A DNA stretch of 64,000 nucleotides from Octopus vulgaris (taxonomy: Eukaryota), in contig OX597834.1 of assembly GCA_951406725.2 (NCBI GenBank), positions 23,126,001 to 23,190,000 on the forward strand. The letters run 5' to 3'. The position numbers were made by a program, and so were the translations under genes. The notes beneath the pieces were generated by a model, which worked only from the letters and a program-made list of their open reading frames with translations, had not been told where the DNA came from and did no database searches. Positions 1 through 44,258 of the stretch are shown in pieces. Position 1 is the first letter of the stretch. Each line of letters opens with the position of its first letter.

Positions 1-660
1 AAACAGTTTGGCAGGAACTGATTGCACCAAACTGCAATGTCTGCTTTTCTATGGTTCCAATAGCTGGATACTCTTCTAATGACAACCACTCTACAGTGTC
101 TTCGGAGTGCTGTTTTAATGCCATCGACAACACTAGTGTGGTCAAGATCTCTCGATTGAGTGGCAGCAAGTATTGAGGGAGGTGAAAGTATGACAGATGG
201 ACAGGACAAGGTGTCTGACTGAAGAAGAAATATATGGCTAACCCAGTTGGAAAGGGGAGATGGTGAGGGTGTATCCTCAAGGTACAAGGTGAACAGAAGA
301 GAGAGAGACAGAGACAGAAAGGGTGGGTGGGTAGCTTCGTCTCTGATTAGAGATGGGGGATTATAGAAAAGAAAACATTTCTTATAAGTACACATACACA
401 CGCACACATATATATATTCGCAAACTGAAAATGCATTTTGAAAAGTTATCAAAAATATTGTTTGAAATTTTACAGAAGGGCAGTTTATGGATGTAGTTTT
501 GTATGTTCAACCAAATGTGTGTGACTGTGTATATATATAGATAGATATAGTAGTTAAAACTAAATAAACTTATTACTTATTCAATGATGTCATTAGACTC
601 AGCATAGTTTTGTGCTGTGTTGAACTGTTAATCCCTACACATTTTTTTTTTGCTTCCCAA

Positions 661-699
661 TCTGTTCTGTTGAAGAGCATAGGCTTGAAACGTCAAAGA
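661..699 (+). ncRNA. Minimal type I hammerhead-like motif (CTGTTGA variant) in a Penelope-like terminal remnant, decayed copy
   Basis: CTGTTGA-A-GAGC..GCTT-GAAAC-GTC-AAAGA; same family as 20363 and 39175. Confidence 0.5.
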
Positions 700-979
700 C
701 TTCTCCATTCTTCCTGAGAGTTAAGCTAATACACCTGCTTGTTGTTCCTTCACCTATCTTTGTCATTTGTTTTGTGTCTCTTCGTGAAGATCTGGAAGTT
801 AAAGGACAAAAATAGCAATTGTCATCTAATAGGGAACATTGCTAGGATATGGTAAGTCTTATGCTATGATATAGTTATAACCTCTGCTGTTGGGAATTGT
901 TGGAAATCTTAAACTGCATGGGTGATGTTATTGACAGATAAGGATCAAATGTCCACATTCTATCTGTAGAACTTTTTTT

Positions 980-1197
980 ACTCTTTAGCATTTAAACTGG
1001 CCAATCCCAGCCCAAATATTGTTTCATATTCAAACTGGCCATATCCAACCTCTCACACCTAACCTACACTGACATTCTAAAAATAAACAACCATATCATC
1101 AAAACCTCGAAGCTATGAGAGAATGCAGGGTTAATTCAAAGTAATTTGAATGAAAAGGTGTTGTATTTAACAAAGTAATCTGAATGCTAAAGAATTC
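980..1197. mobile_element. piggyBac-like MITE, decayed
   Basis: Ends ACTCTTTAGCATT / AATGCTAAAGAATT are imperfect inverted repeats; related fragment near 53455-53596. Confidence 0.45.
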
Positions 1198-2772
1198 AAC
1201 TTTAAATGATTCTATTAAGCATTCTCAAGTGCCAGATTATGTATCTGTAACTCTACAATATAGACCTTATCTACTGATAATGAGATTCATGGATTATACA
1301 GAGGTAGCCTGATGTATCCTAATACTCTTAACATCAATGATTGAAAATTCATATAATTTACAATTTAATAACTTTATTCAATTTGCTTCTAATCTTAGTT
1401 TTGGTATCTTATAATTGCTTAATCCTTCCAAGTTATGGCCTTTACAATTCTTTTAAAATTTTCTTAAATGCTTCCCATAAGTTAAAATTATTATTATTAT
1501 TAATCATGTGACTTACAGGATTTGCTTTATTCTCAATAATAACATGCAAATATTGGTGAACAAAAATGCTGGCATCCAAGGCTTTGAAATTTTGCAAACC
1601 TTTGATTTGAATTAACCCTGCATTCTCTCATAGCTTCTCTGCATTTTTCCCCTTAATAATAGCTAATATTCTATTAGTTCTACAGTAATTAATAGGTGCG
1701 CTTTAACCAATAGGATGAAAATGAATAAGAAATGCTTGAATTTATTAACCATGTCACTCCTTTGATCTATAAAATAATAGAGTAAATGGGTTTCTTTTTG
1801 AGAACATCAGCAACTGATTTGAAAATTTAAATATCACGTTTGGCACCTACCATCTGCTGGTTTATAAGTCTCTTTTGCCAGTACTAATTTCTATGAGAGG
1901 TGTCGTTAAGTTTAATGACATCTTTAGTTTAAATATACCTTTTAACAATTCTATAATTTACAACCTTATTCTGATGTCCACCTTCATAATTGACTGATTA
2001 CAGTCCCACACACGTTTCTTAAAGGTAATTCTGATTTGAAATTTCATTTATTGAGACGTCAACATGTTACTGTTGGCTTGTATATTCGGTAAACTTGATG
2101 AGTTGGGAATTGCATAGCATTACATAATTTTATGGATGTTGTGCTTACTGCATACCTAACTGTATCATGTTTATGTAACAATTAAGATTCTTCACAAAAC
2201 AACTGAAGTAGTACCAGGTAACCCATTTGTCTGTTTTTATGCCACACTTAAGGTTCCATTCATTGTTGGGTACCTTTGAATGTTATCAGAGCTGTGCATT
2301 ACCTAACAATGAATACCTCATCATTAATGCATTCTGTGCTATGACAACAGATTGTCTGTTTTGCATCATTCTGTCAAGCCAATAATTGTGGCATGCTTCA
2401 CTTTGATACATCCTTAATGAATCTCTTTTAATCAAATCAATCTATCAATATATACACATATATTTACATACATACACAATCACACATGCATGCAAATTGA
2501 TATGTATGTGTGTATACTCTTTTAGATGGCTTAAGATGCACCTCAATTTTTGCAGTGCTTTTCTTGAAATATCATTCCTATTTTATTTATTACCCATTGG
2601 TTTTCAATGTATGGAGACACTTTTCTCTATGTACAACACCAGCAGTGAAATCTGAAGTAGAGAATGTATACTTTAACTGTTACAAGTCTTGCAGAGAAAG
2701 AGGTGAAACACACACTAATATATACATATATAAGAATGTGTGTGTGTGTGTGTGTATGTACACACACACAAC

Positions 2773-2925
2773 AGGCTTCTTTCAGTTTCCATTTACCGAA
2801 ACCCAATGTCAAGGTTTTGCTTGGTTCAGGGCTGAAATAGAAGACACATGTCCAAGGTGCCATGTGATGGGATTGAACCTGAAACCACAGTTAGAGGTTA
2901 AACTTTTTTATCCTACACCCATATA
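2773..2925 (-). mobile_element. tRNA-derived CORE-type SINE
   Basis: Reverse complement of GGCACCTTGGGCAAGTGTCTTCT CORE-like block; many copies in window. Confidence 0.7.
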
Positions 2926-3453
2926 TGTACAATGCATGTAAATAATATCTAAGCATATAGATTAGATAAATGAAATAATGCACACAAAATATTAAAAGTA
3001 TATCCTATTGTGTTATAATGAAATATTTTATTTAAAGAAAAAGATGCGTTGTTGTTATCCCTGATTTAATACATGCCTCCGTTGTTTACCCACAATGTCA
3101 AATACATCAACTGTATCTTTTTCTCCTTTCTGGAGACAAGGTCAGATAGAATATATCTACTTTTATTAAGATTATGACAATGGTAAGTTATCTCACCAAT
3201 ATAGATGTAGTTATGGTTATAAAAAAAAAATAGAGTTGTTATCACATTGTTATATCTTCTATCATGTGTGAATATCTTTATAAGATGATGAATGACTTTT
3301 GACAGTACTACAGCTATAGTTTGGTATCAACAGATACAGGAGTTGTTACTTTCTCAGAGATTTTATCACAGATATCTGTTATCTTTTTTCCTTTCTATGA
3401 ATATATTTATCATCTGAAGTAATGTCAGTCAGAAAACAAGTTTGACATAAATA

Positions 3454-4284
3454 TCAAAGTGGAATGGCCTTCTCGCCTTTATGAATATGTTTGTGAGTTG
3501 TTAACATATTACTCCTAGAGAATGATTTGCCACAGATATCACAGTGATAAGGTGTCTCTCCTGTATGAGTACGCTTGTGAGTAATTAAGTCACTACCTAC
3601 AGCAAATGATTTACCACAGATATTACAGAGATATGGCTTCTCTCCTGTGTGAATACGTTTGTGTCTAGTGAAGCTACTACCACTAGAGAACATTTTACCA
3701 CAGGTATCACAGTGATATGGCTTCTCTCCTGTATGAGTACGTTTGTGAATAGTTAAGTCAGGATTTCTAGAGAAAGATTTACCACAGAAATCACAATGAA
3801 ATGGACTCTCTCCTGTATGAGTACGTTTGTGAGTAGTTAAATCACTACTTCCAGAGAACAGTTTTCCACAGATATCACAGTCATATGGTTTCTCTCCAGT
3901 ATGAATACGTCTGTGTTTCGTTAAATGGTCACTTACAGCGAATGACTGGCCACAAATATCACAGTGATATGGTTTCTCTCCTGAATGAATACGTTCGTGA
4001 ATAGTCAGGGAATGTTTAAGTCTGAATGACTTACCACAGACACTACAATGGTGTGGTTTTTCCCCCGTATGAATGCGTTTGTGCGTACTTAAAGCACTAC
4101 TCTGAGAGAATGATTTACCACAGATACCACAGTGATATGGCTTCTCTCCTGTGTGACTACGTTTGTGAGTGGTTAAACGACTACTTACAGAGAATGATTT
4201 ACCACAGATATCACACTGATATGCATTCACTTCTTTATGAATATATTTGTCAATATTTCTTGTATCACCGTCAGATGATGACAT
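3454..4284 (-). CDS. Tandem C2H2 zinc-finger protein (9 intact fingers), ZNF-A
   Basis: 276 aa ORF of CxxC-x12-HxxxH repeats with TGEKP linkers; single coding exon. Confidence 0.95.
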
Positions 4285-4699
4285 TTTACAGATATTTCAC
4301 AGCAGTTATCTCTTTCTTTATGCCATCAGTAAAAATCAATCTTTTTAGACTGTTATACAATTAATTTTCTTCTCATACAATATATTAACCATAATAGTTC
4401 TTCCCTCACTACAAAATACTGACATTTTTCTTATCTTCACTTTTATATTTCATTCCTACCATTTCTATTGTAAACTTCAACTTGGATTAAAATGTAAAAC
4501 AAGTCTTGTAGTTGTTCCAGACAGCAAAGTCGCAAATAATCTCAGTTCAAGAGGAAATTCTTCATGATAATTCTACCACAGATTTATATAAACAGAGTTA
4601 TATGTTGTGCATAATGTCTTCGTTTAGTCTTTAAATGATAAAAGGTTTGGGGATACACCTCAGGTAAACATTCTTTTATATCAACGTTGCCTGTTATTT

Positions 4700-5429: not shown

Positions 5430-5755
5430 CTCGGATAATTCTAGTTGAGTAACGCCGATGTTTGAATTGGTGGAAAAGTAGCTTGGTCTCTGTCCATTAT
5501 TAGCTTCCAGTTGTTGGTTAAGAAATGCTGTAGATTGTTTGTGTGTGTAAGTAGTGTAGGTGGACGTCAAAATGAATGGGTAAATATGCTTTGTCAATGG
5601 AATTAGGCTCGCAGAACACTGCCTTGGAAAAGATCAGCAACACTGGAACCGTATGGAATAAATGACACACTGTCCAAGAAGCAAAGCGGAAGTTGAATTT
5701 TATTGGTAGGTTTAGGTCATGTGATAAAACCTATTGCAATATAGATGCGCGCGTG
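5430..5755 (-). promoter_or_regulatory. Non-coding first exon and promoter of ZNF-A (ETS-like CGGAAGT, E-box GTCATGTGA, GCGCGC box)
   Basis: CGGAAGT 5687-5693, GGTCATGTGAT 5715-5725, TGCGCGCG 5746-5753; homologous blocks at 9032-9310 and 15833-16410. Confidence 0.65.
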
Positions 5756-6439
5756 TGTGAACTTCTCTACGGAATATGGTAAACTCAGGGCTTCCTATTT
5801 ATAATTTTAAACAGCACCATTTAGTTTCTTTCCCAACATTATAATTATTGAACTAAGTGAAGCAGGGAAATGCTGAAAAGTATTCAACAATTAGTGGGGG
5901 GTCATGTGTTTTTGCTTCGAAAGATTTGTTAACTCTTTGAAATTCAGAAATAGTTTTTCTTGTCGTAGAACATTAAGCGTAGGACTTCAGCCGCACAGCA
6001 ATGTTCTTCATTCCTCGCAATTTAGGGGGTTCCCCCTCCACCTCAATTAGTCCACCCCATCAAAAATAAATTTCTGAGGTCATATACAGAAATATTACAT
6101 CAGCAAAAGTGGAACTATGTCCAAACTAAAAACAGTCCTCATTATATAATGAAAATGAAAGGGCCTGTTCTATTAACAGGGGTACCGAAATTTAATAAGG
6201 GTGGGAGACTGAAATTTAATGAATGGCAGGCAGGTATTTAATGGGGGGAAAGGAAGGCTATATAATTAAATTAATAAAATTTTGAAATTTGAAATTAAAA
6301 ATTAAATATTGGAAATTAGAAATTAAGAATTGAAAATTTTAAGTTAGAAAATTAAAAAAATTGGAAATAGAAAAAGTATAATAAAATCTTGAAATATCCT
6401 GGGCCTACACTGGCCGAAAGTTATCAAAGTCATCAAGCC

Positions 6440-6717: not shown

Positions 6718-7170
6718 GACGCTTTCGGAAATTCACGATGTGAATTTTCCAAGGCCTCTCCCCCACCCCCTCTTTCGCGAGCGCGGATTTTCTTTTGTTA
6801 TATTCGTTTAGAGCAAGTTGTTTTACACATATTACATTATTATTATTTTTTTTTGGCGATGCTTCGGTATAAGTACACACGTGACTTTGTTTACATTTCT
6901 GAAGATAACAGAAACCCTTTTCTCCCACCCCTAATCCTAACCCCCCATATATTAAAAAAACACAACACTTTCTTGAAATGTATCCGGTACTTACACCGAA
7001 GTTACGCCTTTTTTTTGTTTTTGTGCCCGGGTCTGACCCTCTGACGCTTTCGGAAATTCACGATGTGAATTTTCCAAGGACCCCCCACCGCATTCGCGAG
7101 CGCCCATTTTTTTTGTCATATTCGTTTTGAGGAAGTTGTTTTACACATATTACACTATTTTTTTTTTGTT
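6718..7170. repeat. Tandemly duplicated unclassified element (possibly Helentron-associated)
   Basis: GACGCTTTCGGAAATTCACGATGTGAATTTTCCAAGG at 6718 and 7043; 6860-7008 has an inverted homolog at 9479-9620. Confidence 0.55.
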
Positions 7171-7782
7171 TCTATGACCGGGTCAAACGCTTTAGTTTGG
7201 CCGTCGTTTCTAAGTTTCGGATTTTATTATGGTTTTACACTTTTTCTTGTTCTTCTCAAGCGATAAATTATTTTATGTAACGGCTGTTCTTTAAACAGTT
7301 TCGTTTCTGTTTCAAATATACGAACATTACAGGTTTCACACATGTAAACAGCGGTCTTTTGAGATATATATGTAGGCTCTATTCACCGTTTACGTTAGAT
7401 TGTTTACACGAAACCAAACCATGGGAGGTCACTGTCATGACTTCCGGTCAATTTACTCATATTTCGTTTTTTAAGTCCTCAGCTGTTTGTCAACCAGGAA
7501 ATGTGTCTACCAAATATCATTTTGAAAATACCGAAGAAAAAACAAAATGCAATTTCAAGAACAAGGAAAAAAATTGATGAGGTTGGGAGCAACAAACTGT
7601 AGTTACAACGAGCCAATGCATGTATAACTAGTGAGAGAGGCAAAATAAACTCCCACATTTTAGAGGTTGACAAAAAGGCCAAAATAAATATTATTTGAAA
7701 AAGTATTTTAATAATATTAACCTGAAGGAATACAGTTCGTTTCACATTGGTTTTGAAAATGATATTCTCCAAATGGTGGTCT

Positions 7783-8397
7783 CTAATCGATATAAACTGT
7801 TGTAGTTGGTTTCTTAAGTTTTTCATCACTCCGTGAGTCGATTTCATTACTCGGCGAGTCAGTTACATTACTCAGTGAGTCAGTTACATTATTCGGCGAG
7901 TCAGTTACATTACTCGGCGAGTCAGTTACATTACTCGGCGAGTCAGTTACTTTACTCGGCGAGTCAGTTACATTATTCGGCGATGCAGTTCCCTCACTCG
8001 GCGAGTCATATTTATGAAGTTCCTTAATAACCATTTTCTGCGGTTCGAAGTTGAGATCGGAGTGTAAAATTCTCCTGAGTGTTCGATCCGACAACCCTAG
8101 AGCAGAGGCATGTTTCCGAGCTGAACGGTTAGGTGATTGCAAAATATATTGTCTCACGGCTTGGACATTTTCTGGAGTTCGAATGCTCCGAGGTCTTCCA
8201 GGTGGATTTTTTTTAAGCGCTGAACCTGTAGTCCTGAACCTTTCAGTCCATAACAATATCGATTTTCGGCCTGGAACAGCATCATTTCGATTGAGTCCGA
8301 AATGAATACGAAAAGCTCTCTGGGTCGTAATCACAGATTCCCCATTCTTAATATACGTTTCAACCGCAAAAGCACGTTCTGGACCAGTCCACACCAT
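7783..8397 (-). CDS. Tc1/mariner transposase-derived DNA-binding protein (DUF4817-like HTH + GRPR + second HTH) with DSPSNVT heptad tail; no DDE/D domain; 204 aa
   Basis: MVWTGPERAFAVETY..TQRAFRIHF..W.ERFRTTGS..PGRPRSIRTPEN..SPNRSARKHA..LSDRTLRRILH; uninterrupted frame; ATG at 8397 just after acceptor tttcctttcag (8406). Confidence 0.85.
   Translation of the reverse strand: MVWTGPERAFAVETYIKNGESVITTQRAFRIHFGLNRNDAVPGRKSILLWTERFRTTGSALKKNPPGRPRSIRTPENVQAVRQYILQSPNRSARKHASALGLSDRTLRRILHSDLNFEPQKMVIKELHKYDSPSEGTASPNNVTDSPSKVTDSPSNVTDSPSNVTDSPNNVTDSLSNVTDSPSNEIDSRSDEKLKKPTTTVYID
7826..8008. repeat. 21-bp coding minisatellite, about 8 copies
   Basis: Unit TTACTCGGCGAGTCAGTTACA; encodes DSPSNVT on the minus strand. 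Confidence 0.95.
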
Positions 8398-8497
8398 GAC
8401 AGTAACTGAAAGGAAATGATAAAAAGGCAAAACTTTAGCTACATGAAGACATTCATTACCAATTTTCACTAGCATCACACTAATAAGCGTGGAAAAT

Positions 8498-8537
<40 letters not shown>

Positions 8538-8716
8538 CAGTGGTTTTCAACCAGGGTTCCGCAAGAAGTTACAAAACTGCTAAAATCGGCAGTAATTTTT
8601 AATTCTCCTGTGCAGATATGTGTGCATAAAACTATTAAATTATTGCACAGAGGCTCCTCGAGCCAGTGGAATGTTTCCTTGGGGTTCCGCTCCAGCAAAA
8701 AGTTTGAAAAGCACTG
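8538..8716. mobile_element. hAT (Charlie-like) MITE
   Basis: TIRs CAGTGGTTTTCAA / TTGAAAAGCACTG with perfect 8-bp TSD GTGTATAT. Confidence 0.85.
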
Positions 8717-8749
<33 letters not shown>

Positions 8750-8754
<5 letters not shown>

Positions 8755-8958
8755 GCCGGGCGAAATACGTAGCCGTATTTCGTCTGTCGTTACGTTCCGA
8801 GTTGAATTTCCGCCGAGGTCGACTTTGCCTTTCATCCTCTCGGGGTCGATAAATTAAGTACCAGTTACGCACTAGGGTTGATATAATCGACTTAATCCCT
8901 TTGTCTGTCCTTGTTTGTCCCCTCTGTGTTTAGCCCCTTGTGGGTAGTAAAGAAATAA
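8750..8958 (+). mobile_element. MESC/Meta-like SINE, 5' truncated
   Basis: CCGAGGTCGACTTTGCCTTTCATCCT..GGGGTCGATAAATTAAGTACCAG and AAAGAAATA tail. Confidence 0.75.
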
Positions 8959-9031
8959 ATATATATATACACAAACACACATACATGTATGTGTAAACGA
9001 AAAAACAAAGACAGCTGAATACAATAAATAC

Positions 9032-9310
9032 CTGTTAGGTTTCGAAACGTTGTAACTACTGCAGATGGACGTCAAGATATTTCACGGAACACGGAGTTTG
9101 TATGGAATAAATAATCTTTACTGGAATATTGGGGGTAGGGTGGAAGTGGCGAAGCTGAGATACTTCCGAAATAAAGACAGAACGGAAGTAGAATTATTGG
9201 ATGTTCATTTGGCTATTTAGGTCATGTGATAGCAACGGAGAGAGAGGCGGGTGTCTATAGCAACAAGTTGAGATGGATTACTCCCGTTTAGCCAAATGCG
9301 CGCGCGCGCC
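9032..9310 (-). promoter_or_regulatory. First exon/promoter paralogous to those of the ZNF genes
   Basis: TGGACGTCAA, GTATGGAATAAAT, CGGAAGTAGAATTATTG, TTTAGGTCATGTGATA and TGCGCGCG in the same order as at 5560-5753. Confidence 0.7.
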
Positions 9311-9326: not shown

Positions 9327-9479
9327 GGTGCAGGCATGGCTAATTGGTAAGAGGTTTGCTTCCCGACTACATGACTCCAGGTTCAGTCTCACTGTGTGGT
9401 ACCTTGGGCAAGTGTCTTCTAATATAGCCTTGGGCTGATCAAAGCCTTGTGAGTGGATTTAATAGACAGAAACTGAAAG
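9327..9479 (+). mobile_element. CORE-type SINE
   Basis: tRNA-like head with GGTTCAGTC B-box then CCTTGGGCAAGTGTCTTCT. Confidence 0.75.
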
Positions 9480-9640
9480 GACGTAACTTCGGTATACGTA
9501 CCGGAAGTATCGGATACATTTCAAGAAAGTGTTTTTTTTATATATATGGGGGGTTAGAGTTAGGGTTTCTGTTACCTTCAGAAATGTAAACAAAGCCACT
9601 TACGGTACGTATACTGAAAGAAGCCCATTGTATATGTATA

Positions 9641-15832: not shown

Positions 15833-16410
15833 CTCGTATAATTCTAGAGGTGACGTTTGAATAGGTAGAAAGTAGCTGTCTTCTTTGTCCATTATCAGCT
15901 TCCATTTGTGGGTTAAGAAATGTAGATTGTTTGTAACTTTTGTGAGTGGACATATATATGGTTGTATGCTATGGCCGGTCATAGGGTGACCATTGGTTTT
16001 GCAACTATAAATCGCTTAGCTGTATAGGCAACTCGTTAGACTCAAATGGCCAGAGGCACATAAGGTACTATTTAAGAAGAGTGGTCCCGGTGCGCGCACT
16101 CGGCAACCCGCGCTAGCTTGTCGATCTTTACTTTGTGTTTTATTTACTTTGCTAGGTAGTAGTTGTAGGATCGACTAGTTACGACTAGCTTGCGCGAGTA
16201 CGCGCACCGAGACCACTCTTCTTAAATAGTATCGCACACAACTTCTCTCAATATTTATATATACATACCTTGTCAAAGGAATTGGGTTCAGAGAACACTG
16301 TCTTGGAGGAGAACAACACTAGAATTGCAACCATCCACGTTGGAAGATTTAGAATGGGGGAATGGTTAAACATTTCCGGAATAATGACTTGGCGGAAGTA
16401 GAATTATTGT
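15833..16410 (-). promoter_or_regulatory. First exon/promoter of ZNF-B, interrupted by an insertion
   Basis: TGTCCATTATCAGCTTCC..GGTTAAGAAATG and TTGTCAAAGGAATT..AGAACACTG match ZNF-A; CGGAAGT 16393-16399. Confidence 0.6.
16068..16229. mobile_element. MITE with about 35-bp TIRs and TA TSD
   Basis: TA|CTATTTAAGAAGAGTGGTCCCGGTGCGCG ... CGCGCACCGAGACCACTCTTCTTAAATAG|TA. Confidence 0.85.
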
Positions 16411-17542
16411 TGTATCGGTTGCTTGTCTCCCGTAACGCAGAGAGAAGAATCAATAAATACAGGGTTATGACCGACCGTTATCAGCTTGGGTGTGAAAGGC
16501 CCTGCATGAACACGCCATGATCACCTACCAAAAGGTTTCAGCTAAAATAACAGGGCTCGTGGGATCGGCTATCCTGTTCTTTTAACTTCGTTTGTTTATT
16601 TGTCCTTATTTAATTTTCATTGTAAATTCATCTCATTGTGAATAACCCATCCGATTTTATTGTAAAAAGCTCCATGTTGACCCCAAACATTGTAATGTCC
16701 CCATCTGTGTTAATCCGTATGGATAATAAAGAAATTAGCTTGTGCCGATCGCCGTCAGATGTTCTCGGACCCCTTACTACCGATTTCCTCCGCAAAATAG
16801 GGGCAACGACGGCTCCAGGAGAAAGGAGCCCCGCTGGTTGGAGTTGCTGGCTGCTGCAGCGAGGGTCTCTGACCACCCACCGCGTCAATGCCACCCTGAT
16901 TATTACTGCTGGTTGTGGATGCACACCTCACCTGTTCTGGGGTATGTGCTCCATCGCACCCCGCACTTCATCTGCTGCTTTACTCCCCCACTTTCTTACC
17001 TCTCTCTTCTCCTGTTTGTTTGCATTGAAATTTGAATAAAGATATGCTTCTATGTTTAGTTAAATGAGGATAAATAGCCGAAATTTTCAGATGTCACTGT
17101 CGTTATTATCGGCGAATTACTTCCATTTATTCTAAGTTCAAAACCTACCTGTTAACCTTTTGCTTTCAGTAACTAAGTTTCAAATGTTTTAAAATGTCTT
17201 CTTACAATGCTACAACTTACATTCATTTTCATATAATTAATGATGAGCTTTTTACTTTATTTTTCCTTTTCTTCTTCAGTTGGAATAAAATTACTATTGC
17301 TTCCTAACTTGCGAAGTTGGCGTGTTTCTGACGAATCTGCTCAAATATAATAGACATTCTGGCTGAATTTCGTTTCGGTCTGTCAAGATAGCCAAATAAT
17401 TTTCTGTACAATCCCTATTATTGGTAGATTCAGTTTCATGTCAGTTTATATTTTTGCCTTTTCCTTTTTTTGTTAATCTAGTACTAGACGACAACTATGT
17501 TGCCTGAGGTACACCAACATATTTTTTGTTATATCATTATGC

Positions 17543-43519: not shown

Positions 43520-44258
43520 TTACTAAAGAGTAATTTTATTCAATAAAATCTCCATTGGCTTTGACCACAGCCTCCAGACGACTTTGGATCCTCCTGCAAC
43601 TCTTCTGGATGGTCTCTCTTTGTTTAAGTTGGTGAATGCTACCATAATCCTTGCTTTCTGTTTATCTTCAGTGTTACAAGGAGATTTGTTGATCTCTCAC
43701 TCAACTGGACCCCACACATAATAATCGAGGGGTTTGCAGATTGGAGAGTAAAGTGGCCGGATGTTAGGAGTGATGTGGTCATAGAAATTGTCTGACAGCC
43801 ATGACTGGGTTCTCCTGCTTGTGTGGTATGGTGCAGAGTCCTGTTGCCAGACATAGGATCTTCTAGCAGCCGCCACCCTCTTGATCCAGGGCAGTTCTAC
43901 CTCCTCCGGGCACTTGATGTAGGCCTCTGTGTTGGGTCTTAGGCCATGTGAGAAGATGAATGGAGGCATAATGTCACCATCACTAGTTATCACTCCAAAC
44001 ACCATGATGTTGACTGGATGTTTAATTTTTATCACTCTTGGTACATATTTGTACTGGAGCTTTTGGTGTGAATACCAAGCAGAACAGCATGTCATTTCCA
44101 AATTTCTGGCAGAGTGAATTGCATCATGGTGCTGTTTTTCTCACAGATGGTGCCCAACTGACCCGACTATATCAAAAACCCTACGAAATCAAAAATGAAC
44201 AATGTGCATGCACGAAATTTAAAATATAACATGGTGACAATTTACCTATCACACCCTG
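43520..44258 (-). mobile_element. Tc1/mariner DD37D (maT-like) transposase remnant, internally deleted
   Basis: MVFGVITSDG..MPP..WQQDSAPYH..PLDYYVWG; terminus TA|CAGGGTG. Confidence 0.8.

Follow-up and report, generated by a model that had tools for sequence, protein, structure and literature searches.

The window, a 64,000-nt stretch of Octopus vulgaris DNA (contig OX597834.1, positions 23,126,001 to 23,190,000), contains an internally deleted copy of a Tc1/mariner transposon that has been captured by splicing, has lost mobility and catalysis, is conserved in its DNA-binding part and is read through into the exons of zinc-finger (ZNF) genes. The copy and its transcription unit lie on the minus strand, as do the ZNF1 and ZNF2 features described below. 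The explanation that we favour, with moderate confidence, is that this DD41D copy, spliced as an internal exon, is a domesticated host gene whose product would bind the terminal inverted repeats (TIRs) of its own extinct family without cutting them. Domestication of the 204-aa frame appears quite probable; given domestication, a binding role at the relic ends and MITEs of the family is judged likely.

The sequencing runs carry no RNA label on record, and those used were presumed to be RNA. In two runs, X1 of study P1 and X7 of study P4, contigs show a non-coding exon 1 (9032..9198), which has no ATG from 9198, joined at 9032/8405 by a GT..AG intron to exon 2 (7722..8405), an internal exon of 684 nt that is wholly transposon-derived and shows 0 and 1 differences in the two. 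One contig starts further upstream, at 9407. The initial annotation had placed an acceptor 8 nt before the ATG and a donor at 9031 and had named the 9032/8405 minus-strand join as a check; both sites (AG 8407-8406 and GT 9031) are used in the X1 and X7 contigs, and the join was seen in two studies. A spliced transcript from a host promoter, here found in two studies at an exact GT..AG, is expected of a domesticated transposase gene. Intron 1 (8406..9031) holds a high-copy repeat (8752-8958), an inverted-repeat element (~8538-8716) and a (CA)n run. The small element at 8538-8716 has CAGTG..CACTG ends, is of high copy by read depth and adjoins the lost 5' TIR. Among the other runs, a contig of X14 (study P5) ceases to fit at 8405, its remaining part not being listed; a contig from the large run X19 crosses the acceptor unspliced; X16 gave no long piece across 7950-8495; and in X21 (organism F) exon 2 had no cover at 80% likeness, with slight depth over exon 1.

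The acceptor of exon 2 was supplied by the transposon. At this column 30 of 43 sister copies have AG and 18 have CAG, the same acceptor occurs in a young DD41D family, and no match was found to the conserved ZNF acceptor that precedes the coding exons of the cluster. The donor at the other end (CAG followed by GT at 7722/7721, within 7716..7724) was not seen in 11 sister copies. Exon 2 stops at 7722 in X1 and X7, with zero depth past that point. In X7 it is joined to position 4699, where the coding exon of ZNF1 starts, and in X1 to the next ZNF, at an acceptor 1.1 kb ahead of the window (one contig from one study in each case). The layout with a single coding exon, as first described, therefore does not hold, since exon 2 ends at the donor at 7721 and is spliced onto two different ZNF exons. 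No fused transposase-ZNF frame is present in either modelled mRNA, in both of which 26 ATGs precede the ZNF start, and no longer transposase-ZNF fusion protein from this locus was found. The stop codon of the 204-aa frame lies 61 nt upstream of the next junction. The nonsense-mediated decay rule applies to stops more than 50-55 nt before a junction, and decay of this mRNA is thus possible; a search of the literature for decay rules in molluscs gave nothing usable.

The ZNF-type promoter stretch (9140..9260) is similar to the upstream regions of the two flanking ZNF genes and contains what we take to be a CCAAT-like box followed by ACTTCCG, and an E-box-like TCACATGAC. When 2636 windows in 264 kb were scanned for likeness to the stretch 9260-9032 (median score 23, 99th percentile 36), the upstream windows of ZNF1 and ZNF2 ranked first among non-self windows (scores 58 and 55). 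The match, which is short and consists partly of common motifs, was found both by nhmmer (E=9e-4 and 7e-3) and by blastn (E=8e-5). Queried against the whole genome at the DNA level, the promoter returned itself alone, and within 264 kb only the two neighbours matched. Since the two neighbours are the best matches, local tandem duplication is the simplest origin of the promoter. The proposed homology to the flanking genes in the same orientation thus stands for the promoter and the 5' part of exon 1, and fails for the 3' end of exon 1 and for a ZNF-type acceptor; the 3' ends of exon 1 of ZNF1 and ZNF2 share 76% over 138 nt, which is absent at the transposase unit. ZNF1 has its own promoter and exon 1 (5430..5760), spliced at 5430/4699 in X14 to the coding exon (3454..4699; acceptor 4700; ORF 4284-3454, 276 aa) that receives exon 2 in X7. 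The ZNF2 promoter stretch (16270..16470; ORF 14639-13593) is the third of this similar trio.

The cluster comprises 28 multi-finger C2H2 frames in about 215 kb, with the transposase locus at its edge. Four likely promoters and four ZNF exons were counted between 16400 and -7122, so that the promoter at 9260-9032 probably still serves ZNF exons, with the transposon in its intron. No CpG-rich unique stretch was found between the end of ZNF1 and the acceptor of the ZNF that lies beyond the window start (positions 1-3450 of the window and L033:8878-10000), and this ZNF, which starts 1.5 kb before the window, may need upstream first exons. A 74% identical inverted pair (6863-7011 / 9476-9618) brackets the promoter, exon 1 and the transposase exon; it has partial copies elsewhere in the cluster and is probably two repeat copies.

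Other transposase frames were observed on this chromosome. An intact 630-aa pogo/Tigger-type frame with CENP-B_N, HTH_Tnp_Tc5 and DDE_1 (L042:7853-9745, minus strand, ~23.035 Mb) lies in the same ZNF cluster, 90 kb before the window start and head to head with a ZNF gene. It has one 97% copy at 3.30 Mb of the same chromosome, its next best long match is 75%, and it is a second candidate for domestication. The cluster also contains two similar 127-aa Mos1-type HTH_48 frames without a catalytic domain (L040:8116-8499, plus strand; L036:1379-1762, minus strand). A 510-aa BED-finger frame (L153:7009-8541, minus strand) lies between two ZNF frames at 16.82 Mb of the same chromosome, 6.3 Mb away. 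Within the window the other transposase remnants are broken, as the initial annotation had noted, the Tc1-like piece at 43598-44020 being a fragment.

In a wider reading, octopus-type ZNF clusters would be a nursery for new DNA-binding proteins. Their non-coding first exons would splice promiscuously to a number of downstream exons, trap acceptor-bearing transposases repeatedly and yield bicistronic transposase-plus-ZNF mRNAs, adding TIR-reading factors without domain fusion. The DD41D domain, the distant BED-finger frame and the intact pogo/Tigger-type frame, 98 kb away, would be its cases, all on the same chromosome. We put this reading forward only tentatively, as possible rather than probable.

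The 204-aa ORF (7783..8397) begins at the first ATG of the mRNA starting at 9198, from which it would presumably be translated. A Pfam search detected DUF4817 at aa 5-59 (E=1.4e-12) and HTH_32 at aa 50-111 (E=1.3e-6, below the curated cut-off), in agreement with the intact frame (8397-7783) and bipartite HTH/GRPR region noted at first. The bipartite helix-turn-helix DNA-binding domain (aa 1-123; 8029..8397), which is the part under purifying selection, contains the GRPR-type linker expected of the DD41D group. The Ser/Pro-rich repeat reported in place of the DDE/D domain likewise proved real: a 21-nt tandem repeat of 8.8 copies (7824..8008) encodes a Ser/Asp/Thr/Pro tail that is predicted to be disordered, and the catalytic domain is deleted. 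In an AlphaFold model, two bundles of three helices are followed by a tail that is of low confidence from aa 123 on; pLDDT is mostly 80-97 over aa 1-120, the linker excepted. The top fold match of the model was the SETMAR DNA-binding domain on its TIR, at a weak E=4e-3, followed by Mos1; the structure comparison yielded no fold match below E=0.001, and a search of solved structures with the single protein sequence gave chance matches only. The relatives of the frame are intact transposases of 355-380 aa, and 41 residues separate the second and third catalytic Asp in all seven intact relatives checked, the DD41D spacing that is described as characterising the rosa group (PMC5490172). Outside this genome, the nearest intact transposase shares 102 of 123 residues of the DNA-binding part (83%). 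On these comparisons, the 204-aa frame represents the DNA-binding half of a Tc1/mariner transposase of the DD41D type. P0170, 84% identical, was rejected as an ortholog, being a piece of an intact transposase cluster.

The deleted copy spans about 8501-7628. Its 5' end (8398..8501) is of the old DD41D type and consists of an inner TIR remnant (~8501-8490), the leader and the native splice acceptor, the outer 5' TIR being replaced by (CA)n; at the 3' end lies a decayed TIR (~7628..7661). The statement that no TIRs are recognisable thus has to be withdrawn, and a complete TIR pair with TA flanks is not present at this copy. A remnant of the transposase C-terminus (7749..7847) is out of frame and decays like the dead copies, and the DD41D catalytic triad was lost by the internal deletion. 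Descent from the DD41D family is supported, whereas membership as an element is not, the triad being deleted and the TIR pair incomplete. In sister copies, few of which cover each side, ATGACT flanks the lost catalytic region on both sides, and the repeat unit is 3'-side sequence in another reading frame, which suggests that the Ser/Pro tail grew from the deletion junction. It likely expanded from a 21-nt piece at this junction; the deletion itself, joined at a 6-nt microhomology, caused a shift of frame.

Many sister copies are 220-bp MITEs with both ends, one of which finds at least 41 further matches at 68-81% (best 40 of 79 candidates scored). Divergence among the relic TIRs amounts to 20-30%, so that good sites may now be few. 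The 5' end of the old element recurs as a truncated copy inside the ZNF cluster at ~22,979,750 of the same chromosome, 146 kb before the window start. Many contigs contain, in addition, dozens of 86-aa open frames with one TAA in the same place whose identity to the N-terminus is 55-61%; these form another truncated family of many copies.

The cognate old family looks long dead, its copies being 17-20% diverged, which weakens a present-day role as a repressor of its own family. The protein might still act as a KP-like inhibitor of the younger related DD41D family, by occupying TIRs or by poisoning transposase dimers. This younger family exists, with seven copies 96-98% identical and one 359-aa frame that has all three catalytic motifs, its DNA-binding part is 59-62% identical to the 204-aa protein, and KP itself is described as a repressor of 207 aa that derives from a P element with an internal deletion (PMC7776569). 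However, the TIR of the young family differs from that of the old family beyond the first bases, and the insertion is far older than the young family (17-20% versus 2-4% divergence). We thus consider such inhibition unlikely. The terminal repeats of the young family (L017, L019 and five more loci) are 55 nt long and near-perfect.

Among the best candidates scored, the 204-aa gene appears to be single copy and immobile. A DNA copy search of the 2.8-Gb genome gave 43 matches (best 40 of 42 candidates scored), of which the best to the locus were 83% over 147 nt and 69% over about 430 nt, and the best other protein match was 62% (best 150 of 3623 candidates scored). The copy number check suggested in the initial annotation accordingly did not find many near-identical TIR-flanked copies. 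For the analysis of selection, 84 loci were examined; the alignment of the 5' part comprised 49 distinct copies and that of the 3' part 12, with significant matches only and with the majority of the dead copies alone as reference. Counted against this reference, the changes in the present copy number 17 at first, 7 at second and 30 at third codon positions, each out of 124, whereas the dead copies differ at 20, 22 and 19%, respectively. Second positions are thus spared relative to third positions (7/124 versus 30/124, p=6e-5). With 25 synonymous and 28 non-synonymous changes, pN/pS is 0.35 in this copy, compared with about 1.0 in nine dead sisters (125 synonymous and 400 non-synonymous; Fisher p=5e-4). 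The ratio ranges over 0.71-1.26 in nine of the 10 long dead copies; the tenth, L067 (0.38), was left out of the nine-copy count as a separate subfamily, and p is 0.004 when it is included.

A control within the element points in the same direction. Where two intact relatives have the same residue, the DNA-binding part was changed at 14 of 103 such positions and the C-terminal remnant at 10 of 28 (p=0.012), whereas in dead sisters the two parts were changed alike (291/713, 41%, and 80/201, 40%). The intronic parts of this copy were 17% (15/90) and 12% (10/83) diverged versus 18% and 17% in sisters. No frame break was found in this copy (8.3 expected) versus 5-13 in each of the 10 long dead copies, an argument that is inflated because the locus was chosen for its open frame and that weighs less than the codon pattern. 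Synonymous divergence was 0.285 in this copy and 0.199 in the sisters (p=0.06), and the C-terminal remnant was less diverged at the DNA level (9/81 versus 20% in dead copies); part of the selection signal may therefore reflect a different source lineage. Matching DNA was found in five organisms, and those compared differ by about 1%, which gives no cross-species dN/dS; one change in the ORF pieces of X19 was read as synonymous. No ortholog of the 204-aa protein of any length was found among annotated proteins. Purifying selection on the DNA-binding part is thus supported by controls within the genome and within the element, which are distinct from a cross-species estimate.

The possible difference in source lineage bears on the reading that the locus is neutral, an exonised relic that inserted later from a separate source lineage, has an open frame by chance and is passively read through. 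The closest outside transposase, at 83% identity, is about as near as the local sister majority (100/124), and both the slightly raised synonymous divergence and the absence of an ortholog from the protein collection fit this reading. On the other hand, no young sister copies were found among the best candidates scored, the TIRs and C-terminal remnant of this very copy are decayed, and third-position divergence is 44% in the truly separate subfamily copy L067 versus 24% here. A neutral relic therefore seems doubtful. In another reading, selection would act with no function of the protein, on an upstream frame that is long and translated and that, as a uORF or decay switch, tunes or silences the downstream ZNF output. 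This would suit an internal exon 2 with its many ATGs and its stop 61 nt before the junction, and a ZNF beyond the window start that has no CpG-rich unique stretch to itself and is spliced to from the transposase-unit promoter. It is improbable because such a switch needs an open frame and not conserved residues, and second positions are strongly spared.

The domesticated DNA-binding gene that we favour builds on the following observations. The transposon lies in the first intron of a ZNF-type transcription unit, where its native acceptor and a donor unseen in its sisters make it an internal exon, and its catalytic domain has been lost by an internal deletion that also shifted the frame. Transcription continues into ZNF exons without an in-frame fusion, and the DNA-binding part has been conserved while the remainder of the element decayed. 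Translated from the first ATG, the 204-aa product may still recognise the TIR of its family, the scattered relic ends and 220-bp MITEs of the old family being the putative targets, and it may act there as a sequence-specific chromatin or transcription factor in the manner of SETMAR or PGBD3. The Ser/Pro tail might serve as a flexible, possibly phosphorylated appendage. Of the original proposal that a promoter unit captured a transposase exon, domestication is retained (single copy, spliced, immobile, with selection on the DNA-binding part only), whereas a promoter swap is not, as the transposon sits in a ZNF-type intron with its own acceptor.

The capture route follows the vertebrate rule. In vertebrate host-transposase fusions such as KRABINER, an acceptor is reported to have been present just upstream of the transposase ORF in 8 of 9 cases (bioRxiv 10.1101/2020.05.07.082677). 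The present gene shares with KRABINER-type fusions, as described there, a mariner-type element in an intron of a ZNF gene and a DNA-binding domain under purifying selection (bioRxiv 10.1101/2020.05.07.082677). Unlike them, it has no fused host domain and no in-frame fusion: its upstream exon is non-coding, the transposase sequence forms an internal exon, and the coding exons of ZNF genes come only after a stop. The product resembles HTH-only mariner genes, CSB-PGBD3 and KP, and the locus is not a fusion gene. Among the Drosophila genes made of Tc1/mariner DNA-binding modules, LOC26532114 of the obscura group is described with a dN/dS of 0.7 and a bidirectional promoter shared with its neighbour (PMC13548663). 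As far as that account goes, the two genes have in common a retained HTH, a lost DDE, a 5' UTR intron and a borrowed promoter, as well as a restriction to a lineage and moderate constraint (PMC13548663). The octopus gene differs in its tandem ZNF-type promoter, its transcript that runs into ZNF exons and its DD41D family.

CSB-PGBD3 with the MER85 MITEs is a similar case of a natural exon trap through the element's own acceptor, in which the extinct family has left MITEs as possible binding sites; PGBD3, in contrast, is reported as a full-length piggyBac element that is a terminal exon fused to host exons (PMC2268245). P-element KP resembles the present gene in its size of about 205 aa, its internal deletion and its retention of the DNA-binding front end only, and differs, by the published description, in being multi-copy and mobile, in using the element's own promoter and in acting on an active family (PMC7776569). 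The rosa/Visitor DD41D family, as described, shares with the relatives of this copy the spacing found in 7/7 of them, short TIRs and derived MITEs (PMC5490172), whereas this copy is without a catalytic domain and a complete TIR pair. For Octopus, transposon-derived factors of other families have been reported in a paper whose main text does not mention DUF4817 (PMC10027918). In the literature covered, mainly the main texts of open-access papers, no paper on this gene was found.

If the favoured explanation is true, the locus would provide an example of transposase capture, young and datable, from an animal that is neither a vertebrate nor a fly. It would come with a built-in control, in which one half of the element is conserved and the other half decays, and with defined candidate targets in the MITEs of the family. 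First exons of this cluster can also be spliced to alternative coding exons. This bears on how the large C2H2 repertoire of cephalopods is expressed and on whether these ZNF clusters deal with transposons, a role that, as far as the accounts consulted go, is predicted and not shown for cephalopod ZNFs (PMC10547256, PMC12513265, PMC9068888, PMC13282606).
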